64,000 nt of DNA from a virus (taxonomy: Duplodnaviria; Caudoviricetes): positions 43,634-107,633 of the IMG/VR virus record IMGVR_UViG_2744054517_000003. One strand, 5' to 3'. How positions within the stretch are numbered: the stretch's first letter is position 1; each line of letters starts with the position of its first letter. The notes beneath the pieces are model-generated. The model did not search any database. It saw nothing but the letters and a program-made list of their open reading frames with translations, and was not told the origin of the DNA. Shown in pieces: positions 7,692-64,000 of this stretch. Both the position numbers and the translations under genes were made by a program.

Positions 7692-7937
7692 TTGAGTAAT
7701 AGGACTCTCGTCTGTGATTTGAAAAATCTTTTACTTGAAAAAGGTTGGGAGCAGAAGAAGCTATCGGAATTAACTGGTATTCGAGAGGCGACAATTTCGG
7801 AGTTAGTAAGAAACAAGAATAAAATGTTCCCACGTCAGGTACTAGAAAAAATTATTAACGTACTGGAAATAGACGATATAACAAAGCTAATCCGCATTGA
7901 GTACATATCCCAAGGTGCCAAAGAAAGTACTGATTAA
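7692..7937 (+). CDS. Cro/CI-type HTH repressor (Stl-like position)
   Basis: WEQKKLSELTGIREATISELVRN; divergent from operator-controlled operon. Confidence 0.8.
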   Translation: MSNRTLVCDLKNLLLEKGWEQKKLSELTGIREATISELVRNKNKMFPRQVLEKIINVLEIDDITKLIRIEYISQGAKESTD

Positions 7938-7942
7938 ATGCA

Positions 7943-7974
7943 AAAGAGCCGTTAACCATACGGCTCTTTTTTTT
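7943..7974 (+). terminator. Intrinsic terminator
   Basis: AAGAGCCGT...ACGGCTCTT plus T-run. Confidence 0.75.
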
Positions 7975-8130
7975 GCGTGGATTTATCGAGAGATTCGTTA
8001 AGGAATACTATGTCGAAAAATATTGTAATTCTACATGCTTGACCCAAGTAACTCATTTTTGGTATAATTTTTTTGTCTAAAGAACAAAAAATAGATTTCC
8101 TTTAAGATTATAGATCATGGAGGTGCCATT

Positions 8131-8682
8131 TTGAATAAACCTACGCCTGATTACATTAGAGATACTGCTGTATCTATTTTGCAAGATTACGATATGGGAA
8201 TAAAGCAGTCGGACCTCTGGAGAGAAGTTGAGACGTTTTTATCTGAATCTGGTTATGAAATCACTGACCATACACTCAAGAACGCACTTTGGGACCTAGA
8301 AAAGCAACGGCCGGAGGAAGTTTTAAAGATTAAAAAATCAGCCAAAAATGTAGAACTGCACCCTTTAGACAATAATTCAGATAAACAAGACGCTTATGAC
8401 GAAGCGTGGAATGAATCGCTACAGGATAGAGCAATAGGATCATTAATAAACCTTTCAGGCATGGTATCAGAAATAACGGTTAGGATTGATTCTTCAGGTA
8501 TCCATTCTAAATTAGATGAAACACAAGTGCTTTATATGAATGAATACCCCCCTGAAGTAATTGAGGCAATTACAACTCTTGGCATAGCGCTTGACCTCAT
8601 GGAGAAAAGCAAAAGTGCCTTCAAAAATATAAGACACGTATGGGCTCTAGATTCCCGGAAGGCTAGTTTACAAAGGAGGTGA
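8131..8682 (+). CDS. Accessory hypothetical protein, wHTH-like N-terminus
   Basis: 183 aa, AT-rich, own TTGACC-17-TATAAT promoter. Confidence 0.7.
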   Translation: MNKPTPDYIRDTAVSILQDYDMGIKQSDLWREVETFLSESGYEITDHTLKNALWDLEKQRPEEVLKIKKSAKNVELHPLDNNSDKQDAYDEAWNESLQDRAIGSLINLSGMVSEITVRIDSSGIHSKLDETQVLYMNEYPPEVIEAITTLGIALDLMEKSKSAFKNIRHVWALDSRKASLQRR

Positions 8683-8689
8683 TAACAAT

Positions 8690-8776
8690 ATGAATGTATA
8701 TGAATCACTTGCAATCATGCTACAGTTTGGACTTGTCATAATTGGTATACTTACACTGGCACAGAAAAAGCGATAG
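8690..8776 (+). CDS. Holin-like type I toxin (28 aa)
   Basis: MNVYESLAIMLQFGLVIIGILTLAQKKR; AAGGAGGT RBS; opposite-strand terminator 8764-8800. Confidence 0.75.
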   Translation: MNVYESLAIMLQFGLVIIGILTLAQKKR

Positions 8777-9207
8777 CCTCCCCACCATGAGCTGCTACCG
8801 CACAATACTTACAGTTTCAATAATAACGTTTAGTGTAATTACCTGCAAGACTAGGCGTAGCCCTCCGAGATTGCGTCTTTTACGTTTGTGCGTGGACAAG
8901 ATAAGAACCGTAACCCTACGTATAGGCTGCGATTCTTTTCGTTTCCTGAAGTCTGCGCATCAAATATAATTTCCAACGGTCCGTAAGATGGACGGCTCTG
9001 TCGCGACACAAAATTATCAGCTTCTAAAATCAAAAAAAAGCCCGCAATTCTCTACGTTGAGGACACGGGCTTTTAACGTTAAATTAGGCGTTTATGGCGC
9101 TACCCTTACGTGGGTATTCGGAACGGAGTTACGGCGCTTATTTGCGGTGAAATGCGATGATTAAGCTTAATAACTATGTATATATTTTGTACCACTGTCT
9201 TTCTTAA

Positions 9208-9477
9208 TTACCCTCTGTGTGCGCCCGCATACAATCCGCCCAACGCCCCGAGCACGCCACAAGCAATAGCAGCGATCATAATTACAGGCCCTTGTATATC
9301 ACGACCTTCGACCTTCTTCGTAAGGAATCCGAGAATGACCGCGATCGGAGACGTAACCACGGGAAACCACAACAAAGAGAGTACAGCAAACGTCCATCCG
9401 AGGAACGCGAGCGCGCTACCCTTCCGTTGTTCTTGCCTTTCCGTTGGCTTGTCGCTCTTTACGACACCGTTAATCAA
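9208..9477 (-). CDS. Small membrane protein (DUF4190-like)
   Basis: Hydrophobic helices, PIAVILG motif. Confidence 0.65.
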   Translation of the reverse strand: MINGVVKSDKPTERQEQRKGSALAFLGWTFAVLSLLWFPVVTSPIAVILGFLTKKVEGRDIQGPVIMIAAIACGVLGALGGLYAGAHRG

Positions 9478-10091: not shown

Positions 10092-11150
10092 TTAGCGTCT
10101 CTTTCCTGCGCGAGTCATTCCGAGTCGTGAAAGTGGCGAAAATTGTGAATGACTGTCTCGCATAGCACCTTCGTTTACCTTGACGTACCCTTGCGTAGTC
10201 TTAATATCAGCGTGCGCTACGATCCGCTGCAAGGTGAAGAGGTCACCGCCATTAAGTAGATAGTTTGTGCAGAAGTAATCGCGGAATCGGTGCGGTGATA
10301 CTGGAGTTACCTTCCGATCGATACCCACTTTGTCCGCATACTGGCTTAGTCTCTTTCGGAATTGGTCGGCTTTTAACGGATCACCGTAATTCGCCAGAAA
10401 TATGAAGTCCGTATCAAAATAAGAGCGATTCTCTTCCATAAGGATAACCAACTCACGCAAAACACTCGCCGATACCGGAACAATTCGCGGCTTTCTGTTT
10501 TTGTTCATATGGCCCGGCAGCCGAATACATCGTGACGCGATATCCAGGTGAGTCGATTCCAGCCGCAACGCCTCATTAATTCGCAATCCTGTATCTGCAA
10601 GTAACAACATAAGCGTACGGTCGCGGAAGCCCGCAAATGTATCAACGTCGGCAGCTTCGACTAAATCTCGGAGTTGTTCATCTACAATTACGCTCTTCTC
10701 TTCCGTATCCTTGCGTGGTGGCTTTAGCTTCTCCGCCGGGTCTTCTTTCATCAATCCCTCGGACATCCAAAATTTACACATTGTTTTCAACGCGCGGAGT
10801 CTTGACGCTACCGTTACGGGTGAGAGATTGCACCCTTCTACTCGCCGTTCTGCGACGCCGTCGTATTTTGTCCGTTCGTAGGACATGTAGTTCATATACT
10901 CGCGTAGAATGGCCGTATCGAGCTGGCCTACTTCATCTATCTCCGAGTGATTCTCCATAAGCCACTCCCGAAAATAACGCCAGTAACTTTGATAGTCTTC
11001 GAGTGTTCGTGTCCGTAACTTCTCCGCTCGTTTAGCGTTGAAGAATAGATCGAACCCCAAGTCAAGCCCGACGAAGCCGACCTCTTTTCCAGACCGCCCA
11101 CTGCGGCGTTTAGCCGTAACAGCCTTACCCTTACGCGGATCAACTGACAT
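10092..11150 (-). CDS. int: Tyrosine integrase of satellite
   Basis: DTGLRINEAL, HRFR, HADIKTTQGY catalytic motifs. Confidence 0.95.
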   Translation of the reverse strand: MSVDPRKGKAVTAKRRSGRSGKEVGFVGLDLGFDLFFNAKRAEKLRTRTLEDYQSYWRYFREWLMENHSEIDEVGQLDTAILREYMNYMSYERTKYDGVAERRVEGCNLSPVTVASRLRALKTMCKFWMSEGLMKEDPAEKLKPPRKDTEEKSVIVDEQLRDLVEAADVDTFAGFRDRTLMLLLADTGLRINEALRLESTHLDIASRCIRLPGHMNKNRKPRIVPVSASVLRELVILMEENRSYFDTDFIFLANYGDPLKADQFRKRLSQYADKVGIDRKVTPVSPHRFRDYFCTNYLLNGGDLFTLQRIVAHADIKTTQGYVKVNEGAMRDSHSQFSPLSRLGMTRAGKRR

Positions 11151-11720: not shown

Positions 11721-11942
11721 ATGGCGGCTCCTCAACCTGAACCAGGGAGAAGCCGTTTGCCTGAGTTGCTAAAAGCAAATAGAATGAAGCAAGTAGATCT
11801 TGCTAATTACTTGGGCGTGTCTCCAGCTCTTATCTCGCGAATAATTGCTGGGGAACGTCTTTTTTCTTATCCATTGGCTGCTAGGGCAGCTTTTAAGCTT
11901 GGATGCACAATGGAAGAATTGCATGAATGGGACTTGTGTTAG
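11721..11942 (+). CDS. XRE-family HTH regulator
   Basis: MKQVDLANYLGVSPALISRIIAG; GAGGTG RBS. Confidence 0.85.
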   Translation: MAAPQPEPGRSRLPELLKANRMKQVDLANYLGVSPALISRIIAGERLFSYPLAARAAFKLGCTMEELHEWDLC

Positions 11943-12048
11943 GGCAAACGGTTGTGGGGTATCCCCTCCCGCTGCCATGGAAATTTACTTAAAGTCAATT
12001 TTTTTATCTTTTTATAAACTAAATTTTGTTTCATCTCCAAATGAATGC

Positions 12049-12068
12049 AAACACTCGTTCCTATTATA
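12049..12068 (-). promoter_or_regulatory. SOS-box-like site next to a leftward TATAAT
   Basis: AAAC-ACTC-GTTC at 12049-12060, ATTATA at 12063-12068. Confidence 0.45.
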
Positions 12069-12278
12069 CCTCATGTTACCAATCGACTCAATGGATTTAA
12101 TCATCGTAATTCCCTCCCTTTTTTTAATTTTAATTTAAAACCTTTCACCTATATTAAATCCCAATATTAGGTGGTTTGGCAACATAAATTCGTCCCGCTG
12201 AACTCCTGCCATTTAACGACTTTATTCGACATGATATAGCTTGATTATCGACAAAAAAAGACCGCTTTTACCTGCGGT

Positions 12279-12650
12279 CTAGAAAAATACGACATTTGGA
12301 TTCAACACCTCAAGTCTGTTAATCGCTTCATCATATCTGTTATGAGCGATTTCACACCTTTTTGATTTCTTTGTAATTTCTTCTTCGAAATATACCTCTT
12401 TAAACAAAGTGTTGATTTTAACAACATTGTCTGCATTAAAAATATTGCTTCTATCTGCATATACAAAATTACTACTTTTGTTTAAAGCATTCATGCAGTA
12501 TTTTAATGGACCTGTCATGTAGTATTTGTTATCTTCGGTATGTACTACAAGACGATCGATGATCCGTTTGTAACTTATAAACCATATTGAGTCAACCGGC
12601 AAATCAATATACCCTGATAATCCTTCGGCATCAGATGTTACGCTTACCAC
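12279..12650 (-). CDS. Stand-alone LytTR DNA-binding protein
   Basis: LVVHTEDNKYY...FVYADRSNIFNADNVVKI resembles LytTR F.R.HRS.IVN; no receiver domain. Confidence 0.8.
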   Translation of the reverse strand: MVSVTSDAEGLSGYIDLPVDSIWFISYKRIIDRLVVHTEDNKYYMTGPLKYCMNALNKSSNFVYADRSNIFNADNVVKINTLFKEVYFEEEITKKSKRCEIAHNRYDEAINRLEVLNPNVVFF

Positions 12651-12661
12651 AAAAACGCCCC

Positions 12662-12784
12662 CTATTCAAACAATTCTGATGGCGGTTCCGGGCTGTAAAT
12701 AAAAGCGATACTTGCGACACTTACAGTTAAAACCGCGATTGAAGATAATACTGTCGCCAACTTAGAATATATATTTTGGGTCAT
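12662..12784 (-). CDS. agrD: AgrD-like cyclic lactone autoinducer precursor (40 aa)
   Basis: MTQNIYSKLATVLSSIAVLTVSVASIAFIYSPEPPSELFE; AAGGAGGT RBS; right after agrB; absent from ORF track. Confidence 0.85.
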   Translation of the reverse strand: MTQNIYSKLATVLSSIAVLTVSVASIAFIYSPEPPSELFE

Positions 12785-12792
12785 GTCCTTAA

Positions 12793-13308
12793 TCACCTCC
12801 TTAAGTTAATCAGCGTCAAAGATTGTGCCAGGATGCTTATTGCTATAAAAGGATGAGTAAACCAAAGATTAAATCCTACAAGAATAAACGCAGCTACTTT
12901 TAGAGCAGAAAAATACTTTGGCGGTATACGGGTCTGTTTCTCTATCCCCGCTGGAGCAAAAAGTAAAATTAGAATCATACTGATTCCTGTTGCAATCATA
13001 GTCCATTTGTGGTCCAAAGTTATGAACGATAATCCAGTAAACAGAAGCGTGGAAACAACTACGCAGCCCATACCGCTTTTAAGGTGTACCCCTCCTGTCA
13101 TTTGTCTCAAGATAGCAAAGGTCATCATTATAGTGAATACTTCCCCTGCTTTACCTGTTAGCAAGGCTATTATGATCGTTGCCACAGTTATAAAGACTAT
13201 ATTAAGAATCACTGCTAATGCATGTTTCAAAACTGGCACAGAGGCCGGGTGATCTGGTACCACACTCTTTATATGCTGCGCCATCCGCAAGGCTAGTGGC
13301 TCAATCAT
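12793..13308 (-). CDS. agrB: AgrB-family peptide maturation protein
   Basis: LRQMTGGVHLKSGMGC (R..GG.H...C) and FAP motifs, multi-TM. Confidence 0.9.
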   Translation of the reverse strand: MIEPLALRMAQHIKSVVPDHPASVPVLKHALAVILNIVFITVATIIIALLTGKAGEVFTIMMTFAILRQMTGGVHLKSGMGCVVVSTLLFTGLSFITLDHKWTMIATGISMILILLFAPAGIEKQTRIPPKYFSALKVAAFILVGFNLWFTHPFIAISILAQSLTLINLRR

Positions 13309-13939
13309 CTTTAGAAGACAGCTCCTCTCTTTCTTTCACCACTGCATAATACAGAAACAATCCCGCTACAAGCGCGAGAACTAATATTATAAACAGAAGG
13401 TTGTTGTAAAACATAACAGTTGCAGAAGCGATAAGCCCAACCATTATGAAAGCAATTACTGCTATATGCTCCCATTTGAAACGCAACCGTTCAAACTCTG
13501 CTGTGAATCCGATTTTGAATTTTAATAATATCCATACAAAAAAGAAAGTCCACGCGCTTGTGACTATTTGAACGACTGTCCCGGCTGACGAATACTGCAT
13601 ATCCTCTGTGAAACTACCGAAAAGAGACAAAATAACAAGAGCCTGAAACGCGGTGTAGATAAACATTCCTGTCATAGCCATGATCGCTGCCCACAATATA
13701 GGGACTCTGACCACTGTCGTAATAAGTAATATAAATATTATCGTACTTATTGCAGGAACCATGAAGGATAGAGACATTTGTTCTCTCAAAAAAAAGCTAA
13801 TGAGGTTCATAATCAAAAAAGAAAACAAGCCCGGCCATAAAAATTCAAGAGGTTTAAGCCTATATATTGATAACATTAAAGAAAATGCCGCAAACGATTC
13901 CACGCTTGAAAATAATAAAAACCTCACCGCTTCCCACAT
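13301..13939 (-). CDS. Multi-TM membrane protein, AgrC-sensor-like, no kinase domain
   Basis: 212 aa, about 6-7 TM, ends EREELSSKDD and overlaps agrB start. Confidence 0.75.
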   Translation of the reverse strand: MWEAVRFLLFSSVESFAAFSLMLSIYRLKPLEFLWPGLFSFLIMNLISFFLREQMSLSFMVPAISTIIFILLITTVVRVPILWAAIMAMTGMFIYTAFQALVILSLFGSFTEDMQYSSAGTVVQIVTSAWTFFFVWILLKFKIGFTAEFERLRFKWEHIAVIAFIMVGLIASATVMFYNNLLFIILVLALVAGLFLYYAVVKEREELSSKDD

Positions 13940-14060
13940 TACATATGCTCCTTCACAATTGGTAACAAATATGCTTTTATTCTATATTTGTTATCTGTTA
14001 TGGGCAATGCAATTACCAATCTATTTGGTAATTTTTATGTATTATGTGAGGTAATTATTT

Positions 14061-14393
14061 TCAGTCTGCGGATATAATATCCTCTAGTTTAATCCAACTA
14101 AAATCATCTTCCCCACGAACCAGTTTTACCTCACGTCTAGCGGTGTTAATTGACGTAACTACACCAGTCATGTCCGTATCGTCAAACGGGCTAAATACGG
14201 TCACTGTCACGGCTGTACGTGTATTGTAAGACTCTATTAGAGCCTGCTCAATCAATTGTACTTCCTGGTCATCCAATTCTGGTTTACCGCGCCGTTGACG
14301 GTCCTTCATGAGCTTCAAATAAGCTTCTTTATGTTCTGGTATGATAATCCGGCTGCTTTCCCATAAGCCGTTACCTTCTAATTTTTTAGACAT
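14061..14393 (-). CDS. yolD: YolD-like protein
   Basis: WESSRIIIPEHKEA...KPELDDQE; AGGAGG RBS. Confidence 0.85.
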   Translation of the reverse strand: MSKKLEGNGLWESSRIIIPEHKEAYLKLMKDRQRRGKPELDDQEVQLIEQALIESYNTRTAVTVTVFSPFDDTDMTGVVTSINTARREVKLVRGEDDFSWIKLEDIISAD

Positions 14394-14432
14394 GTATGTA
14401 GCCTCCTGATGTGTTATGTAGAAATTATATTC

Positions 14433-14446
14433 CGAACACTTGTTCC
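14433..14446. promoter_or_regulatory. LexA SOS box
   Basis: CGAACACTTGTTCC upstream of yolD. Confidence 0.8.
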
Positions 14447-14502
14447 TTACAAGGGATATCATTTCCAGTACGTAAAAAAATAAACCTCAGATTATCCGAG
14501 GT

Positions 14503-14909: not shown

Positions 14910-15134
14910 ATGGCTAGGGTCGATAAAATCATCGAGAAAATGAAAAACCGCCCTAACGGGATTAGGTTCGCGGAGATAGCAAAAGTCCTGAATCATCTGG
15001 GTTACATAGTGGTACGAATTAAGGGTTCGCATCACATATTCCGAAATGAGTCAGGAGACACGCTCCCGATACCTTTTGAAACACCCGTCAAGGCGGCGTA
15101 CGTCAAAGACGTACTGGAGATCATCGGGGAGTAG
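14910..15134 (+). CDS. hicA: HicA toxin
   Basis: RIKGSHHIF motif. Confidence 0.9.
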   Translation: MARVDKIIEKMKNRPNGIRFAEIAKVLNHLGYIVVRIKGSHHIFRNESGDTLPIPFETPVKAAYVKDVLEIIGE

Positions 15135-15181
15135 TACCTCCCCTTTGTTCTCAAAATCATTTTATCCTAGCCTACATTAAT

Positions 15182-15550
15182 ATGGCAAATGAAAAACCGA
15201 TCCAAAAAGACATAGCGTATTACATGGCGCTCCCGTATACAATTCAGATTAAGCATATGAACGACGAAAGCGGAAGCTACCACTTAGCTACAGTCGCGGA
15301 GCTGGAAGGTTGCAAGAGCCATGGCGACACGCCAGAAGAAGCCCTGAAAATGGTCAGAGAAGCTATGGAGGGTTACCTTGAGGTAAAGCTTGAGTTTGGC
15401 GATGAGATACCGGAACCAGTAAATGAGGAACAATTTAGTGGCAAATGGTTGCAACGTGCTCCAAAGTCCCTGCATAAGCATTTGATGGAGCGTGCAGCAG
15501 CAGAAGGCATATCCTTCAACCAATATTGCTTATACAAACTGAGTAAGTAA
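15182..15550 (+). CDS. hicB: HicB antitoxin
   Basis: LEGCKSHGDTPEEA, C-terminal RHH (PKSLH...EGISFNQY). Confidence 0.9.
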   Translation: MANEKPIQKDIAYYMALPYTIQIKHMNDESGSYHLATVAELEGCKSHGDTPEEALKMVREAMEGYLEVKLEFGDEIPEPVNEEQFSGKWLQRAPKSLHKHLMERAAAEGISFNQYCLYKLSK

Positions 15551-17078: not shown

Positions 17079-17201
17079 TTAAAATCCTCCAATGGTAACG
17101 TTAGGCTGAATACTATGGTGGTGGTTAAAGGCTTGATCCGGCACAGTAACAATCAACAAAAAGCTAGCCGCAATGATTAAAAGCACCATTTTTTTGAACA
17201 T
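17079..17201 (-). CDS. aloP: AloP-like secreted signalling pro-peptide (40 aa)
   Basis: MFKKMVLLIIAASFLLIVTVPDQAFNHHHSIQPNVTIGGF; overlaps receptor 3' end. Confidence 0.8.
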   Translation of the reverse strand: MFKKMVLLIIAASFLLIVTVPDQAFNHHHSIQPNVTIGGF

Positions 17202-18579
17202 TGTTTTCCCACACCCTTTCAATAAGATTGAAATACTCAGCTTTAGTTTCAGGAACCGCATGGGCTTGAAAACGAACAAATAACCCCATACAGTTTATAA
17301 AGTAAGTTTCATTATTTATTATATGTGACTTTACCATTGCATTCATTAAATATTTAAAGCCATCACTGTACTTTCCTCGATGTAAATAATAAAAACCTAA
17401 CTCGTAACCAAACCACGCGATATAATCCGGTATCACTTGTCGGGTATACATATCATCTGATGATGGTTGCTGTGAAAAAGTCCCGATTAGTTTTTCAAAT
17501 CGTTTGAGTATATCGTCTACATTTATGCTGAACTGGTTTGCTGCGATTATAACATTCAACAGTTTTGAGAGCTTTTCATTCTCATTAGCGGCTGATGTTA
17601 CAGCAATATATTCAACATATTCATTCAGTAGATTTGTTTCTCCTGACAACAATTTATATACGTAAGCATTACCTTCTGCCCACTGACTGAACAAATTTAC
17701 CCAGTGTCTTGTGTCCTCGTCGGTCTCTTTAACCCAGTCTAAATCCGCATAGGCGTATGTATATTGTAGAGCTTGCTGATAATCGCCCCGGGCTTCGCAA
17801 ACACTTGCACACAATAGGTCAGCATAAGCAATGTATCCAAATAGCGGACCTCTTGTTCTCTTTTCAATATCTCGTAACTCACGTTTTTCTTGGTGTTTTA
17901 AACTATACTGGATTTCCGCTTTAGCTCTCATTTGTCTTGCCATTTCGTCTACCTTGTCCCATTTACGCAAAGACCTGTATACATTAGCTAAGTCCTTCAA
18001 TGCGTCAAGCTGGTCTATTTCATCTAGGCGTTCGACAAAGGCTTCAAAAACAGCTGCTGCCCTAACATTTTGGCTTTGATCGTCTCCAATTTTGATTGTG
18101 AATATACGATATTGGCAGATTGCCAAACGTTCAGAATGTTGATATCTCTCCGCTTCAGCCACTCCCTCATAGAGCAGCAATGCAGCCTGATGTCGTCCCT
18201 GTGACAATAATCCTTCTGCAATTTCAAATAGCTTGGGTGAATACAGGAGATTGTCCATGATGGCTCCCACCACTCGACGGATCGCATCCAACCTGTCTAA
18301 CTCCGCACAGCGAAACAAAAATGGCTCGATTCGCCTCATATTCGGGGGATGGTCGATGATGAAGTTTTCTATAAACAGATCGTAAAACTCCCCTTCTGGT
18401 AAACCCATAGCCTCAGTGATTCGGTCAAGCTGGTTAACTGACATAGACTTATTCCCTGTCACAATAGCACTTATTATCCCCCTATTCATGCCTGCAAGTT
18501 GTCCGAATTGCGCTAGGCTCAAACCTTTTTGTTGTATATATTTATCTAATTCTGCTCGAATCGTAGGTGTATGCTTCAT
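17164..18579 (-). CDS. aloR: AloR-like RRNPP receptor (HTH plus TPR-like)
   Basis: N-terminal XRE HTH, helical repeat body, adjacent pro-peptide, as in P. polymyxa Alo systems. Confidence 0.8.
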   Translation of the reverse strand: MKHTPTIRAELDKYIQQKGLSLAQFGQLAGMNRGIISAIVTGNKSMSVNQLDRITEAMGLPEGEFYDLFIENFIIDHPPNMRRIEPFLFRCAELDRLDAIRRVVGAIMDNLLYSPKLFEIAEGLLSQGRHQAALLLYEGVAEAERYQHSERLAICQYRIFTIKIGDDQSQNVRAAAVFEAFVERLDEIDQLDALKDLANVYRSLRKWDKVDEMARQMRAKAEIQYSLKHQEKRELRDIEKRTRGPLFGYIAYADLLCASVCEARGDYQQALQYTYAYADLDWVKETDEDTRHWVNLFSQWAEGNAYVYKLLSGETNLLNEYVEYIAVTSAANENEKLSKLLNVIIAANQFSINVDDILKRFEKLIGTFSQQPSSDDMYTRQVIPDYIAWFGYELGFYYLHRGKYSDGFKYLMNAMVKSHIINNETYFINCMGLFVRFQAHAVPETKAEYFNLIERVWENNVQKNGAFNHCG

Positions 18580-18853
18580 ATCATATCCACCCTTCATACA
18601 GAAATTCCAAAACTTATATATTATTGCATTCTATTGTTGTCCATAATTTAACAGTTGTCAATAAGTTTTGAATTTTTTGTCATTCGGATATTCAACTAAA
18701 TTATTTTTTTGAATATTGTCGATTACTGTAAGACAAATAGTGCTACAATATCATTTTTCCATTTTGTTAATAGAAACACACAAATTATTCCTTTCTTTGT
18801 GTTATACTAACTCAGCAATGCAAATAAATCCCATTTTGAAAGGACGATTTTTA

Positions 18854-19786: not shown

Positions 19787-20233
19787 CTATTTCACGATAA
19801 ATTCAACTTTTGTCCCATCTGCGTAGTCGTCTAACTTGTGACCTACCCACGATCCAGCTCCACGATTATCCTTTGGACTTATGTACTTAATGTCTGCACC
19901 CTCTCCACCTTCGGAGCACATCGCCATAGGCCATTCATCGCGGTCCTTGCCCTTCTTGGTGGGCACACCCTTTAGGGACAGCTCGCGATTATGGTCGGCT
20001 CCTTCACGGTCTATTGTGCATACTGGTGATTTTCCCGCCTGAATGGCTTCCTTGATGTGCTGGGCCGTTTCTGGGTACTTGGCTGACGGAAACTCCAGTT
20101 TGACCGTATCGGCAGATACCTGCGTTACCGGAACAGCTACTGGGTCGCTCTTAGTGGTCTTTACAACGTCTTGTTGTACGCTGCAGCCAGCTAATAGGAC
20201 TGTTATCAACACGGTAAATATCCATCTAAACAT
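19787..20233 (-). CDS. nucB: NucA/NucB-family DNase, lipoprotein
   Basis: [26 protein letters not shown]; LAGC lipobox. Confidence 0.9.
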
Positions 20234-22527: not shown

Positions 22528-23088
22528 TTACTCCGTAACGACTGGAGTTTGTATGGAATCTACCGGTGCAGGAATAGGCTCGGGTGCAGATTGAACCTGA
22601 GCGGGAGCAATGGACGTTACCTCTGTTGTAGCCTGTGCCAAGAAATCATTAAGTTTTGCAGCCAGACCTGATACAGCTTCCTTAGCTGCGGCCTGTGCTG
22701 CCTCCTCGTTTGGCTGTGCTTCAGTAGCCAGTACTGCTTTTGTTTTGGCCTTATACTCCAGGAATGCTTTCTCAATCGCGGATTTTAGCTCTACTTGGGA
22801 TACTACAATACCTTGACTGGAAAGAGTAAGTGAAGCATACTGCAAAGCTTCCTGAAGCTTACGTTCTCCTCCTGCTTCTTTAAATGCTGTTTGAGCAAGT
22901 GCGAATGCCTCCCCTGCTACTTTATGGATTACCTCTCGCTGTGCTGCTGTTGTACGCGCTTCTAGCCACACGTTAACCTTAGTCTTGAGTTTGTTCAGAC
23001 CTCCTAAAACAAACGCTGTAAGCACACCCGCAGCGGCTGTGACAATGGTATTTACATAAGGCTGTACAGTTTCGATAATGGTTTGCAT
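22528..23088 (-). CDS. Holin, LL-H-like
   Basis: One N-terminal TM, GERKLQEA...SAIEKA. Confidence 0.75.
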   Translation of the reverse strand: MQTIIETVQPYVNTIVTAAAGVLTAFVLGGLNKLKTKVNVWLEARTTAAQREVIHKVAGEAFALAQTAFKEAGGERKLQEALQYASLTLSSQGIVVSQVELKSAIEKAFLEYKAKTKAVLATEAQPNEEAAQAAAKEAVSGLAAKLNDFLAQATTEVTSIAPAQVQSAPEPIPAPVDSIQTPVVTE

Positions 23089-23090
23089 GA

Positions 23091-24041
23091 TTATTTATCC
23101 CCTTTCGTTTTCAACGATGCGATTTTATTTTTTGAATCCCAGGACACTACAGCGCCGTATGCCTCCGCAACGGGTCTGAGCTGCACGTATGCCACTCCTT
23201 CGACCAGTTGGATAAATTGCAGCTTGGCTCCATTTAAATAAGCGACCTTGAGACTGGTATCCCAATGACACGACAGACCCAAGACATTAGCAAGCACTCG
23301 CAACGATACATACGTCCTGCCACTAAAAAGCAAAGTCTTTCCTACCTGTTTTCCATTTACGACGAACGAACCGGACGTGACTGTCTCCGGCTGCTCAGGG
23401 CGCTTTGTGAAACGTTCACGCAGCTCGTCCGCCGTACCATCATACTCATTCATATCCACGTTCCCTTTTATCCCTGCTACCTTGCCGCTATCGCTATATT
23501 GCCAAATATCCCAACGTTTCCACGTCACTGTATCGCTTGGGACGCGAGTATCACTATACCGGGCTATCCATAGTGGGTAACCGCCCAATGAGGCGTTAAA
23601 ATTAGCTGCGAATGCATTGCCTGTATAGATAATGGGCTTGCGTCCTGTAAGTCTCTCCAGCTCAAGCAGGAAGGCCAAAGCTACAGCACTAATAAGTGTT
23701 TTAGACAGCTTGCCGGGATTGTTTTCATAGTCCATTACAGGCGGCAAGTCTAGCGTTTTCCCTCCGCCTACCTGTTCCAATACCTCGGCAAAATGCCGCG
23801 CTTCTGCTTTGGCTGCATCAACGCTGATTGCGTCTATAAAATGGTATGCGCCCAGCAATACCCCGGCTGCTCTGGCTCCTTTTGCATTCGTGGTGAATGT
23901 CGGATCAACGTAACGTTGCCCCTGGCTAGCCTTGATGAAGGCAAATGAAATGCCATCTGCCTTGACTGCCTTCCAATCAATCTTTCCTTGATATCGGGAT
24001 ACGTCGATCCCTCTTGCATTACGGCTGTTTCGTTGTTGCAT
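23091..24041 (-). CDS. GH25 endolysin
   Basis: GIDVSRYQG, DYE, WQYS, VDMN; C-terminal repeat wall-binding domain. Confidence 0.92.
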   Translation of the reverse strand: MQQRNSRNARGIDVSRYQGKIDWKAVKADGISFAFIKASQGQRYVDPTFTTNAKGARAAGVLLGAYHFIDAISVDAAKAEARHFAEVLEQVGGGKTLDLPPVMDYENNPGKLSKTLISAVALAFLLELERLTGRKPIIYTGNAFAANFNASLGGYPLWIARYSDTRVPSDTVTWKRWDIWQYSDSGKVAGIKGNVDMNEYDGTADELRERFTKRPEQPETVTSGSFVVNGKQVGKTLLFSGRTYVSLRVLANVLGLSCHWDTSLKVAYLNGAKLQFIQLVEGVAYVQLRPVAEAYGAVVSWDSKNKIASLKTKGDK

Positions 24042-24471
24042 CTTCTTTCTCTCCTTCCTTACCACTTTTACTTTTTAAAACTTCTACGGCCTGTCGGATT
24101 ACAGGCGGGATAGGAGCGCCGAGTCTGCCGCCATTCTCCAAAATGGACAGCAGCTCATTTGCCATATAAAAATAGGCGACCGCATCCCGGAATAGGTGCG
24201 AATCGCCTAAAACTCCATCAATCAGATGGGATACTGCTACCATTGCAAAGATAAATACCTTTCGAGCGATACCGATAAGACCAATCTTGCTTTTCAAACC
24301 GGGTCCGGTTCCCTTCTTACCTTCAGCGCCAGCCGCGAATAATCCAGTTACGTAGTCAATAATGACCAGAGCAAGTAACACCCCCAACACTCCCGACCAC
24401 CCACCGTAAAAATACGTTACAGCGCTGCTTCCTAAAGCGGTGCTAAACTTAAAAATCTCCCACTTGTCCAC
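24019..24471 (-). CDS. Phage holin (holin_4 family)
   Basis: DYVTG...NELLSILEN...P. Confidence 0.9.
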   Translation of the reverse strand: MDKWEIFKFSTALGSSAVTYFYGGWSGVLGVLLALVIIDYVTGLFAAGAEGKKGTGPGLKSKIGLIGIARKVFIFAMVAVSHLIDGVLGDSHLFRDAVAYFYMANELLSILENGGRLGAPIPPVIRQAVEVLKSKSGKEGEKEDATTKQP

Positions 24472-43126: not shown

Positions 43127-44595
43127 GACTGTTCATCCTGTTTCGGGTCTGTTTCAGGGGGATTACCACCTGTGCCGCCGTATGGTTGGTCTGGACTATT
43201 ACCAATCGGCTCGGATTCTTCCTCTTTTTTTCTTTCCATTTCTTCCTGCGTGTTGGTGGTCCAAGGATGATTGGCAACAATCGTTTCCATAGATTCAATC
43301 CCCACACTGTTTTTAGCATTTGTTATCGCTTCTGTTTCGTTAATAAGGACATCTCGGTTAAATATGAAATCTACTTCATATTTTGAATAGTCATTGCCTG
43401 TCGTGTTGGCAAGATGCTGGTCTACAAACCACAAAAGCTGTTCCATAGAAGCTTGAAACTCCGTCTCTATGGTGTTTGCATCCATATCAAGGTCATTATA
43501 GGCGAACTTGATGGCTTGTCCTGATTTGTCCCCTTTAAAGTCTTCCGATTGAGTATCCATACCACGGCCAAACTCATATATCGCCTTTCGCAGCATAGTT
43601 ATGTGATTAACAAACGCTTCTGTATCAATGTCAAGACTGAGCGTATCTACACCGCCCGGATCCCTTACCTTTATCACACGTAACTGAGACATATTCCGGC
43701 GCATTTCTCCCACATCTGTGCCGTCATAATTCTTAATAACGTAGATACTGTTTGGCAGGTCTTCGAGGTTATTGGCGTTCTCGCTCATGCGTTTGTCGTA
43801 ATCGTCCACCAGTGTTTTTAGGATCTCAACCAGCGGCATTTCCTCATCGTTATACTTAAATGGGACGAAGGGCACGCGCTCCCAGTTCAATTTCTCCTGA
43901 CCGCTCTTCGTTTGCGCCGTGAAGTGCTCTTTTAATTCCTCGTAAAGCATAAGATCGGGGCTAATTGTAGTATCCTGTACCCACTTCATCACACCGTCAG
44001 TATCCCATAGTTCTACAATATGGACAGTCTTTTTCGTCTTGGCTTCATAGACTTCCATCGGATAGAATCGAATCATCTTGTCTAGCTCCGTATGGGCACC
44101 ATCTTTCCACAGCGGTACACATTGTTCTGACGGAATCACCTTAAAGCCCAACTCACCTTTTTCGGAATAGTAGACTTGCAGCCAGCCGATACCTTTATTA
44201 ATAGCGTTTTTCCCAAGATTCTTGAGTTGTCGCAAGAATGGTTTGCCAAAGAAACTATCTAGTTGTTCTTTGTATTCGTCCGGGCCATCTGTTTGCATGC
44301 TGATAGGCTTAGATAATAAATAACCAGTCTTTTGGTCAACCAGCTTACGAACGAATCCATGGACCAATTTGTTGTTAGCTAGATTTTTAACCTCGATCTG
44401 CGCGCCGCCCTCTCCAATGATATACCGCTTGTGTTTAAGAATCTCTGTCTGATTACGGTAGTAAGCTTCCCCGGTCAGCATCCATTCATAACGTTTGGAC
44501 CGCTTGAAGTCGTTAACCTCTTGCTGCGCTATCTCCCGATTAGTCATAGGAGCATTCTTATCGAGGTTGTACATTATTTCTTCTGCTAATGTCAT
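43123..44595 (-). CDS. Portal protein (SPP1-like)
   Basis: LVDQKTGYL, VPFVPFKYN, SGQAIKF. Confidence 0.92.
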   Translation of the reverse strand: MTLAEEIMYNLDKNAPMTNREIAQQEVNDFKRSKRYEWMLTGEAYYRNQTEILKHKRYIIGEGGAQIEVKNLANNKLVHGFVRKLVDQKTGYLLSKPISMQTDGPDEYKEQLDSFFGKPFLRQLKNLGKNAINKGIGWLQVYYSEKGELGFKVIPSEQCVPLWKDGAHTELDKMIRFYPMEVYEAKTKKTVHIVELWDTDGVMKWVQDTTISPDLMLYEELKEHFTAQTKSGQEKLNWERVPFVPFKYNDEEMPLVEILKTLVDDYDKRMSENANNLEDLPNSIYVIKNYDGTDVGEMRRNMSQLRVIKVRDPGGVDTLSLDIDTEAFVNHITMLRKAIYEFGRGMDTQSEDFKGDKSGQAIKFAYNDLDMDANTIETEFQASMEQLLWFVDQHLANTTGNDYSKYEVDFIFNRDVLINETEAITNAKNSVGIESMETIVANHPWTTNTQEEMERKKEEESEPIGNSPDQPYGGTGGNPPETDPKQDEQS

Positions 44596-62314: not shown

Positions 62315-62707
62315 TTGGAGGTTAGAACGTTGGATATTTCTGAGAAAATAAAGGACTTAATGAGCAAAAAGGATATTACTGCGTATAGACTAGCCAAAGA
62401 TACAAACATCCCATATACAACACTCAATAAAATACTTAATGGCAAGACGAAAAACCCACAAATAGATTCATTGAGTTTGATTGCTGATTACTTAAATACA
62501 ACAGTTGATGAATTACGGGGTAAAAGTGAAGTTGAAACACCAGAGTGGGCTGATGAAACGGACAAGAATGACCTAAGTGATCTGCTTTTGAAAGAAGAAG
62601 AAGTAACATATAATGGAGTTGTTTTGACAGACGAAGATAAGAAGTCTGTCAACGACATGCTTACAGGTTTGTTTTGGAAACGCCTTGAAGAAAAAAGAAG
62701 AAAATAA
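62315..62707 (+). CDS. CI/ImmR-like repressor
   Basis: XRE HTH plus short acidic C-terminal domain; no S24 peptidase. Confidence 0.85.
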   Translation: MEVRTLDISEKIKDLMSKKDITAYRLAKDTNIPYTTLNKILNGKTKNPQIDSLSLIADYLNTTVDELRGKSEVETPEWADETDKNDLSDLLLKEEEVTYNGVVLTDEDKKSVNDMLTGLFWKRLEEKRRK

Positions 62708-62839
62708 GAATTAAATACATAAAAAAATTGAGGCCCACTTTTGTATTCGAGCGGGCCTGTTTAGTCATGCCTGAAATTTCAGTGAAAGGGGTGGTTTTTA
62801 TGTGATTTTAATACTGGTACTCATTTAAATAGAGAAAGG

Positions 62840-64000
62840 ATGGTAAAAATGAAAGGTCATGTTAGAAAAAGAGGAAATAAGTGGTGTTTCGTTGTAACTA
62901 TCGGCAAGGATAGAATAACGGGAGAGAGAATACAAAAATGGTTCTCCGGCTATGACAAAGAGAGAGATGCTGAACGAGCCATGATAGAAAAAATCAAGGA
63001 AATAAATGACGGAACATACATTGAAGAAACAGACGAAACAGTTGAACAGTTCATGACTCGTTGGTTGGAGAATAAAAAAAACCAAGTTCGGCCCGGAACA
63101 TTCAAGGCGTACTCTTGGCTTATCAAAACCCATCTAATCCCACATCTCGGGAAACTAGAGATATTCGAACTAAAACCACGACATTTGAGTGACCTATACA
63201 ACAAAAAACTTCTATCTAAAATATCTGCAAATAGCATAAAGAAACTCCACAGCCTTATAAAAGATGCACTCGAAGAAGGAGTTGGCTATGGCGACATACC
63301 AAGGAATATAGCTCAAGCAGTTACTCCACCACGGGTTAAAAAGGTCAAATTTGAAGTTTGGAATGAGAACCAATTGAAAATTTTTCTGGATTTCGCAAGA
63401 AAAGATCGGTTCTATGTAGCTTTTGAATTGGCTGCATCTACCGGAATGAGAATTGGAGAAATACTAGGGTTACGTTGGAAGGATGTTGATTTAGAGGGCT
63501 CAAAGTTATCTGTTCGGCAAGCGTACACTAAAGCAGATTCTGGATATGAATTTCATGAACCTAAAACAGCCAGCGGGGAAAGGTCAGTAGCCTTATTCCC
63601 ATCTACGGTAACTATGTTAAGAGATCATTATGTAGAGCAGGAAATGGAGAAAGAGTCCAACAAGGATTTTTACAACGATCATGGATTAGTTATACAAACA
63701 CATATCGGGACTCCATTAAGTCCGAGAAATTTATCTAGATCATATTATAAGATACTAGACAAAATTGACGAGGATGAAAATATTCAGAACTTTCCACGAA
63801 TAAGGTTTCATGATCTTAGACATACTCACGCCACTCTCCTATTAAAGAGAGGAATACACGCTAAAATCGTTCAAGAGAGGTTAGGTCATTCGTCTATAAC
63901 AATAACCTTAGACACTTATTCTCATGTTTTACCTGGATTGCAAGAGGCCGCTTTGAAAGGTCTGGGAAAGGATATTTTCGATGATGATTCAACGCTTTAA
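62840..64000 (+). CDS. int: Prophage tyrosine integrase
   Basis: TGMRIGEILGL, HDLRHTHAT, LGHSSITITLDTYSH. Confidence 0.96.
   Translation: MVKMKGHVRKRGNKWCFVVTIGKDRITGERIQKWFSGYDKERDAERAMIEKIKEINDGTYIEETDETVEQFMTRWLENKKNQVRPGTFKAYSWLIKTHLIPHLGKLEIFELKPRHLSDLYNKKLLSKISANSIKKLHSLIKDALEEGVGYGDIPRNIAQAVTPPRVKKVKFEVWNENQLKIFLDFARKDRFYVAFELAASTGMRIGEILGLRWKDVDLEGSKLSVRQAYTKADSGYEFHEPKTASGERSVALFPSTVTMLRDHYVEQEMEKESNKDFYNDHGLVIQTHIGTPLSPRNLSRSYYKILDKIDEDENIQNFPRIRFHDLRHTHATLLLKRGIHAKIVQERLGHSSITITLDTYSHVLPGLQEAALKGLGKDIFDDDSTL

Follow-up and report, generated by a model that had tools for sequence, protein, structure and literature searches.

A compact cassette of four genes in a Paenibacillus prophage appears to join the peptide-producing genes of an agr-type quorum-sensing system to a membrane sensor that has no kinase and to a DNA-binding regulator that has no receiver. 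The window studied here, a stretch of 64,000 nucleotides (nt), is the final 64 kb of a 107.6-kb provirus record in IMG/VR (IMGVR_UViG_2744054517_000003, positions 43,634 to 107,633), and the cassette occupies about 1.7 kb of its minus strand, where four open reading frames (ORFs) lie head to tail (13939..12279) and encode a seven-transmembrane protein that we call MEM, an AgrB-type peptidase, an AgrD-type peptide precursor and a LytTR protein, in that order. The textbook agr system is a form of two-component peptide quorum sensing in which AgrC is the sensor kinase and AgrA combines a receiver with a LytTR domain. We propose, with a probability of roughly one half, that the cassette is a phage-borne, phosphorelay-free derivative of agrC-agrB-agrD-agrA in which, by analogy with LytTR regulatory systems, an AgrC-type sensor would control the LytTR protein by direct contact. 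Central to this proposal is the relationship of MEM to AgrC: judged by sequence, MEM is a full-length homologue of the sensor half of AgrC, with nothing behind the last helix. The four genes are as follows.

13301..13939, minus strand: MEM, 212 amino acids (aa), seven transmembrane helices, homologue of the AgrC sensor module without the cytoplasmic kinase part (AlphaFold2 model and family profile)
12793..13308, minus strand: membrane peptidase of AgrB type, 171 aa (PF04647, 62.4 bits, cutoff 23; phrog_10353, 1.1e-28)
12662..12784, minus strand: AgrD precursor, 40 aa from ATG, Cys-free, predicted ring SIAFI (TIGR04223, 22.3 bits against a cutoff of 19)
12279..12650, minus strand: LytTR DNA-binding protein of 123 aa that stands alone, without a receiver domain (PF04397, 29.1 bits, cutoff 22.6)

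The MEM and AgrB frames overlap by 8 nt, gaps of 8 nt and 11 nt separate AgrB from AgrD and AgrD from LytTR, and the four genes form a translationally coupled operon between a promoter-like site and an intrinsic terminator. A preliminary description of this DNA, made from its letters alone, had reported four tightly coupled genes, and that observation, places and strand included, is correct in every particular.

MEM and the sensor half of AgrC

The first gene had been described as encoding a protein with several transmembrane helices that ends without HisKA or HATPase domains, and the AlphaFold2 model (pLDDT 93.9, pTM 0.90) bears this out, with seven helices and a chain that terminates 9 residues beyond the last of them; no Pfam or NCBIfam family, and no kinase domain, was matched by MEM. 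The positive-inside rule predicts an N-out, C-in topology. Near homologues recovered by a word-index search are all of similar size (26 of 26 are 206-218 aa) and come from Paenibacillus wherever the source is named, and their C-terminus (...LYYAxxKEREE) is conserved; C-terminal conservation also extends to 144 distant members of the family. When the MEM profile was run against 1.84 billion representative sequences, 390 clusters were matched at E<=1e-3; the best 150 of these 390 span 76-242 aa, and no HATPase domain was found among those 150 or in MEM itself. Fused longer forms of MEM were not found by a longer-protein search of a 5.8-billion-protein index, a result that is weak evidence, and Pfam searches with the 144 distant members gave no consistent family, just 8 single or double weak hits. 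Among 93 Paenibacillus genomes the MEM family is present in 48, with up to six copies each, and in that scan all of its open frames are at most 307 aa long except for one of 409 aa (genome G023). The preliminary description had named kinase-bearing homologues, with MEM as a truncated copy, as the finding that would speak against its reading; such homologues exist, but as distant relatives only, while the near relatives stand alone (at most 242 aa in the best 150 of the 390 clusters).

The distant relatives came to light when the MEM profile was run against 401 Bacilli genomes. Open frames of 193-270 aa accounted for 44 of the matches (E 1e-24 to 5e-67), and open frames of 418-467 aa for another 17 (E 2e-17 to 9e-6). 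The 17 long matches cover profile positions ~3-205 and correspond to the N-terminal ~200 aa of proteins of 406-460 aa; agrB adjoins 15 of them. HATPase_c or HATPase_c_5, mostly together with SPOB_a, was found in 9 of the 16 long proteins that were scanned against Pfam (L083, in our numbering of loci, was left out). A structure search of the ESM Atlas points the same way, in that residues 2-212 of MEM align to the N-terminal portion of the kinases in four PF14501 clusters (418-447 aa; TM by query 0.61-0.72), and one GGDEF cluster was also matched. In a tree of 46 sensor modules, from which near-duplicates, L082 and L083 were left out, 31 stand-alone proteins, those of two phages among them, make up one side of a branch with 99/94 support, and 8 kinases are grouped at 99/98; the root serves for drawing only, and no direction of change is inferred from it.

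Other comparisons placed MEM nowhere. Foldseek searches with the model gave no match in the PDB at E<=0.001 and none in BFVD, and the family profile found just ORM1-like noise at E 0.01 among PDB sequences, so that the PDB supplied no usable template for the sensor. Five carrier genomes have 12 HATPase_c_5 loci (L018-L029), and with the 15 ORFs of 280 aa or more taken from these, a set that includes some neighbouring genes that are not kinases, the profile reached hmmsearch E values of at least 0.03 and hhalign probabilities below 1%. The homology to AgrC emerged in the class-wide scan of 401 genomes and not in the comparison with ORFs of the carrier genomes. The kinase-less MEM belongs to a stable stand-alone family (about 190-270 aa) and is not a local truncation. 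Within it, the outer half of the protein varies more (entropy 1.30) than the inner one (1.07; p=0.013), and the invariant columns hold R, F, E, L, M, S, W, Y, Q, G and I only. A role like that of MroQ or other CAAX proteases was considered for MEM and rejected, because Pfam gave no match and the family has no conserved His.

The other 7 of the 16 long proteins (L072-L076, L078 and L079; 406-450 aa) have their genes next to agrB-agrD and are the closest long relatives of the stand-alone sensors. Their C-terminal region of ~200 aa has neither a Pfam kinase match nor the RHD[FY] H-box, which is present in the true kinases of the same 401-genome scan, and they may be pseudokinase forms of AgrC. 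The operon runs on with AgrB, AgrD and a regulator of receiver and LytTR domains in L072, L074 and L076, an order that matches the cassette, and a regulator of the same kind also follows agrB-agrD in L078.

Recurrence and co-variation of the cassette

The remaining three proteins are of familiar types. AgrB has the expected His/Cys motif, as the preliminary description had noted, and His75 and Cys82, seven residues apart, are kept in 13 of 13 aligned AgrB sequences; we take these two residues to be the catalytic pair. The agrD frame runs from a GTG (12796..12662), and an ATG at 12784, which has the Shine-Dalgarno sequence AAGGAGG 9 nt upstream, gives the 40-aa precursor. As had been claimed from the start, this precursor contains Ser and no Cys (...VASIAFIYSPEPPSELFE), and its tail is P-x-x-P-x-E-L. 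The 44 AgrD sequences recognised at related loci share a pattern of [SC]-x4, five residues, then P-x-[EHNQ]-[LM], with Ser at the ring-forming position in 43 and Cys in one (L058). If the spacing of staphylococcal AgrD, with a five-residue ring that ends six residues before the tail Pro, is presumed to apply here, the product is predicted to be a Ser-lactone with ring SIAFI, cleaved before Tyr. The predicted rings vary between loci and include SIAFI, SLAFV, SLSWI, SLAWV, SLIYV, SYVYV, SIAYI, CIGWI and others. The last protein of the cassette has no Response_reg match in a Pfam scan, in keeping with the earlier statement that it has no receiver, and its AlphaFold2 model finds as best PDB match the LytTR domain of AgrA (4g4k_A, E 9.9e-7, TMt 0.81). 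LytTR proteins of related loci are 111-141 aa long and none has a receiver, one copy being split (L004/L043, two 71-aa pieces). A TPR or HTH domain was found by the Pfam scan in none of the four cassette proteins.

Fifty distinct other loci were assembled from a first set of 15, from the 25 non-duplicates of 30 found in the scan of 93 Paenibacillus genomes and from 10 found in the scan of 401 Bacilli genomes. AgrB comes next after MEM in 48 of the 50 (the exceptions are L051 and L055), and an intact stand-alone LytTR gene follows AgrD in 30, which gives the full four-gene order; it is split in one more (L004), and the remaining loci have no LytTR gene in the flanking DNA examined. Since the same gene order recurs in dozens of loci, the cassette is not a chance arrangement. 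Isolated phages also carry all four genes, beside integrases, as seen in Brevibacillus phage Abouo (gp44-gp47) and Paenibacillus larvae phage Harrison (genes 38-41). The MEM profile finds Abouo gp44 with an hhalign probability of 99.5%, and Harrison gene 38 is called MEM by its position, its length of 222 aa and the label 'membrane protein' only. The last genes of the two sets, Abouo gp47 (L060) and Harrison gene 41 (L061), are annotated as peptidases and are LytTR domains by PF04397 (29.4 and 29.1 bits; cutoff 22.6); in a listing in PMC5056774 a phage LytTR gene likewise stands as 'dipeptidyl aminopeptidase'. Searches of the phage collection by tblastn gave no match with MEM or with LytTR and five records with AgrB.

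The survey of synteny and of receptor and peptide co-diversification in Paenibacillus that the preliminary description had suggested was informative on both counts: the gene order recurs, and the predicted ring tracks MEM once AgrB is controlled for. In partial Mantel tests, which overstate significance when applied to related sequences such as these, the ring correlates with MEM given AgrB (n=25, r=0.41, p=2e-4), the ring correlates little with AgrB given MEM (n=25, r=0.08, p=0.14), and LytTR correlates with MEM given AgrB (n=20, r=0.71). The cassette in the window is itself of mixed affinity: its AgrB is closest to those of L014, L013 and L047 (70-72%), which its AgrD leader also resembles, and its MEM (85%), its ring (identical) and its LytTR (72%) are closest to L001. 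By these comparisons MEM, the AgrD ring and LytTR co-diversify independently of AgrB, a pattern that fits MEM, peptide and LytTR as the specificity-bearing sensing arm of the system.

Some individual loci have features of their own. L005 and L006 are two identical copies of a cassette with its flanks, about 60 kb apart on one contig, in a genome that has six MEM-family matches. In L007 a second, divergent MEM-AgrB-AgrD set (7876-9383) lies beside a LexA-like gene, without LytTR, ~0.6 kb downstream of a degraded first cassette in which AgrB is frameshifted and LytTR is missing. In L051 and L055 the MEM homologue without AgrB is followed by a Cys-rich protein of 72-74 aa with a CPLC...CWC motif.

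A proposed circuit and its alternatives

Phosphotransfer within the cassette is impossible because there is no kinase and no receiver domain. In the circuit that we propose, AgrB would cleave and cyclise the 40-aa AgrD into a Ser-lactone autoinducing peptide (AIP) with ring SIAFI, as family membership and residue spacing suggest, and the exported peptide would be sensed at the outer face of the seven-transmembrane MEM. MEM would hold or otherwise modulate the receiver-less LytTR, and ligand binding would alter that hold, in the manner of LytTR regulatory systems; the freed or activated LytTR might then act on DNA, its best candidate target being a TGTCGA repeat and a promoter-like region that reads antisense into a gene of XRE type. 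Possible outputs include lysogen physiology, superinfection control and prophage induction.

With canonical agr the cassette shares an AgrB with the His/Cys dyad, an AgrD with the P-x-x-P-x-E-L tail, an AgrC-type sensor, an AgrA-like LytTR domain and the gene order of agrC-B-D-A loci found in other Bacilli. It differs in that the sensor is without DHp and HATPase domains, the regulator is without a receiver, and the predicted ring nucleophile is Ser (giving a lactone) and not Cys. The other obvious comparison is with the LytTR regulatory systems (LRS) of HdrRM and BrsRM type, in which a membrane protein inhibits a receiver-less LytTR regulator without phosphorylation, the regulator gene precedes the membrane-protein gene, and the membrane proteins carry domains such as DUF2154 (PMC6193735); the text of that paper has no mention of agrB, agrD or phage. 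The likeness to LRS that had been drawn for the cassette from its sequence survives in part: there is a receiver-less LytTR in one operon with a polytopic membrane protein, but the gene order differs and the resemblance is one of analogy only. Upstream autoregulatory repeats of the LRS kind were not found at the cassette, where there is a palindrome only, and a direct repeat lies downstream instead.

Parts of this arrangement have been noticed before. In the passages concerned, Hargreaves 2014 (PMC3901668) reports phages Davies, Emery and Abouo with AgrB, AgrD and membrane proteins that lack HATPase, does not note the LytTR partner, and describes temperate phage phiCDHM1 as having agr genes with a full AgrC kinase and no regulator; a 2025 review (PMC11945551), where it touches on the matter, repeats this view. 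Work on Paenibacillus polymyxa AIPs (PMC12180512), in its account of the locus, presents a classic agr locus, with AIPs that are cyclic thiodepsipeptides. Supplements aside (S3 Table of PMC6193735, with >4600 operons, might hold such loci), we found no description in the literature of the four-component MEM/AgrB/AgrD/LytTR module, of the homology between MEM and the AgrC sensor or of the link to LytTR-only regulators. What is new here is this homology, the stand-alone family, the recurrent four-gene module, that of Abouo and Harrison included, and the co-diversification that is independent of AgrB.

Several observations weigh against the proposed circuit. Eighteen of the 40 Paenibacillus loci consist of MEM, AgrB and AgrD with no LytTR gene in the flanking DNA examined, so that the role of MEM does not always need LytTR in cis; 13 of these 18 belong to one chromosomal subtype, which has ring SYVYV and an acyltransferase gene upstream. 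MEM is also found without AgrB, in L051 and L055. In the host genomes that bear the cassette there are 10-13 HATPase_c_5 matches apiece, and cross-talk with host kinases is therefore conceivable. As an LRS the cassette would be irregular, since the operon opens with MEM and closes with LytTR, agrB and agrD lying in between, and since MEM has no Pfam family whereas LRS membrane proteins have DUF2154 and the like, a separation made on domain descriptions. No direct repeat of LytTR style was found upstream of the operon's own promoter, and autoregulation of LRS type is not evident. The co-diversification signal, apart from its overstated significance, may go back to a small number of recombination events, and co-variation with the peptide would be expected of an immunity protein as well.

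These points lend themselves to other explanations. MEM might sense the peptide and pass its output to an unlinked partner, or LytTR might be constitutive, with a level that follows transcription of the operon; the loci without adjacent LytTR would suit such an arrangement, as would the second MEM-AgrB-AgrD set of L007 beside lexA. We think it unlikely in view of the co-diversification of LytTR with MEM after control for AgrB and of the stand-alone LytTR placed after AgrD in 30 of the 50 loci as well as in the two phage records examined, in an order like that of agrC-B-D-A. MEM could instead be an accessory protein (an exporter, a leader-processing helper or a self-immunity factor), with the peptide read by AgrC-type kinases of the host or directed at neighbours as an antagonist or antimicrobial. 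That the linkage of MEM to AgrB-AgrD (48/50) is tighter than its linkage to LytTR (30/50) would be expected of such a protein, immunity and export proteins do co-vary with their peptides, and the host genomes are rich in HATPase_c_5 kinases. The whole-length homology to the ligand-sensing half of AgrC-type kinases, the lack of a conserved His or metalloprotease-like motif in the family and the failure of any Pfam transporter or protease family to fit its 144 distant members (8 weak hits) make an accessory role improbable in our estimate.

A sensor module without output on a mobile element also brings to mind a decoy, or dominant-negative AgrC sensor, that blunts or rewires the agr system of the host; we regard this as very improbable, for the cassette brings its own AgrB, AgrD and LytTR, and the MEM profile has no detectable similarity to the 15 ORFs of at least 280 aa from L018-L029. 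The absence of both phosphorelay domains might further be read as the mark of a non-functional, decaying remnant of a canonical agr operon. The preliminary description had argued that the joint loss of kinase and receiver speaks against simple decay, and its argument is upheld by the conservation of the stand-alone family, its single well-supported tree group and its recurrent loci. The frames are intact, the C-terminus is conserved in the 26 close and 144 distant members, the family is found in 48 of 93 Paenibacillus genomes and in isolated phages, its members form one old and diversified tree group, and the AgrB dyad is kept, so that decay is effectively excluded by the conservation data. 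To judge from the family as a whole, the loss of kinase and receiver is an old, conserved and diversified state.

If the phosphorelay-free circuit is real, an AgrC-type sensor can signal by a route other than a phosphorelay, with sensor, peptide, maturase and DNA-binding domain kept together, and the kinase-less branch is found in about half of the sampled Paenibacillus genomes, in other Bacilli and in isolated temperate phages. We know of no LRS with a dedicated peptide ligand or with AgrBD; the circuit would join the agr and LRS literatures and would provide the first defined ligand for signalling of LRS type. With four genes in 1.7 kb and many natural ring variants, it lends itself to direct tests and might serve as an orthogonal signalling part. 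It would also be a second kind of phage peptide communication beside arbitrium. The arbitrium and other RRNPP systems likewise pair a phage-encoded secreted peptide with a phage-encoded regulator, but there a linear peptide is imported to a cytoplasmic TPR receptor, whereas here a cyclic peptide is predicted to be read at the membrane. A wider conjecture, which we find doubtful although worth stating, is that the cassette serves a new class of communication between phages or lysogens, in which a cyclic lactone read by a kinase-less sensor gates LytTR and so sets induction, the choice between lysis and lysogeny or superinfection exclusion, alongside a system of RRNPP type, and in which the L072-L076, L078 and L079 genes, with regulators of receiver and LytTR domains beside them, represent intermediate forms of such phosphorylation-free signalling.

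Regulatory DNA and prophage surroundings

The sites and genes that adjoin the cassette are the following.

14061..14462, minus strand: YolD-like gene, the next gene upstream, belonging to the conserved prophage backbone (PF08863, 5.6e-24)
14010..14031, minus strand: near-palindrome with core TTACCAA-N5-TTGGTAA, candidate operator, abutting the -35 hexamer (pattern search)
13979..14007, minus strand: promoter-like site TTGCCC-17-TAGAAT, sigma-70-like (consensus scan, 9/12 matches)
12259..12280, minus strand: intrinsic terminator, a 7-bp stem with 5 GC pairs and a T7 run, directly after the LytTR stop
12226..12253, minus strand: direct repeat TGTCGA-N16-TGTCGA, candidate LytTR box, just after the terminator (pattern search)
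12063..12091, minus strand: promoter-like site inside the 30-aa ORF, antisense into the XRE/HTH gene (consensus scan)
12012..12104, minus strand: 30-aa ORF with a strong ribosome-binding site (ORF list)
11721..11942, plus strand: XRE-type HTH protein, 73 aa, convergent with the cassette (PF01381, 3.1e-7)

Both flanks of the operon are conserved. Upstream of MEM, 135 nt show strong conservation between loci whose proteins share just 45-60% identity, and the near-palindrome, found once in the window against 0.01 matches expected, is semi-conserved in L004, L005, L009, L010 and L014. The idea that the palindrome and the conserved upstream box serve as the signal of a shared regulon was dropped, as each occurs just once in the window. 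At the other end, the region from the terminator to the 30-aa ORF is conserved across loci. LytTR proteins usually bind direct repeats with a period of 22 nt. The TGTCGA-N16-TGTCGA repeat occurs once in the window against 0.02 matches expected and has a counterpart in the corresponding position in L001, L005/L006, L010 and L014; degenerate copies occur elsewhere. It is a candidate for the LytTR target. The octamer ATTGGTAA is mildly enriched only (2.95 copies would be expected in the window, which has 7); three of these copies flank the cassette, at 12076-12083, 13958-13965 and 14013-14020, that is, in the promoter region and inside the downstream promoter-like site, and the octamer may be a shared operator.

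That the cassette is phage-borne, as had been supposed, is supported by the provirus record, by the lysis genes upstream on the same strand and by the isolated phages that carry all four genes. Upstream on the same strand are a tail-fibre gene, an endolysin gene (24065..23091) and a holin gene (23088..22528), followed by an accessory region with a NucA/NucB-like gene, an HTH-TPR gene, a HicAB pair, a phrog_3502 gene and yolD, and then by the cassette, which thus occupies the post-lysis 'moron' position of a larger prophage. A tyrosine integrase gene lies below the cassette (11150..10092). A second tyrosine integrase, with a cI-like gene, is found at the far end of the window (62315-64000), and a major capsid gene of SU10 type at 2-1045. 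The two integrases thus bound the large prophage region at either end, and the record probably holds two elements in tandem. Several of these neighbours are common to other loci: yolD lies upstream in 12 of 15, at up to 92% identity by tblastn, and a YolD-like gene is also near the cassette of phage Abouo; XRE homologues are found downstream of the cassette, and on the other strand, in L005, L006, L008, L009, L011 and L012; and other shared genes are the HTH-TPR gene (70-73% identical) and, in L001, the endolysin (83%) and holin (72%) genes.

Some genes of the accessory region may be noted in their own right. The NucA/NucB-type DNase domain protein (19787-20233, minus strand) has homologues 59-61% identical upstream of the cassette in L004 and L005, and a HicA toxin and HicB antitoxin pair (14910-15550, plus strand) lies between the cassette's neighbours and the HTH-TPR gene. 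The HTH-TPR protein itself (477 aa; 18597..17164, minus strand), about 3 kb from the cassette, has its homologues of 70-73% identity upstream of the cassette in L010 and L014. Its 3' end is overlapped by a 40-aa ORF (17201..17079) that opens with a hydrophobic, signal-like segment (MFKKMVLLIIAASFLL...), and in Voichek 2020 (PMC7425212) aloP genes are described as overlapping aloR at its 3' end. The gene and its overlapping ORF resemble a receptor-propeptide pair of RRNPP or Alo type, and the prophage may carry two peptide signalling systems.

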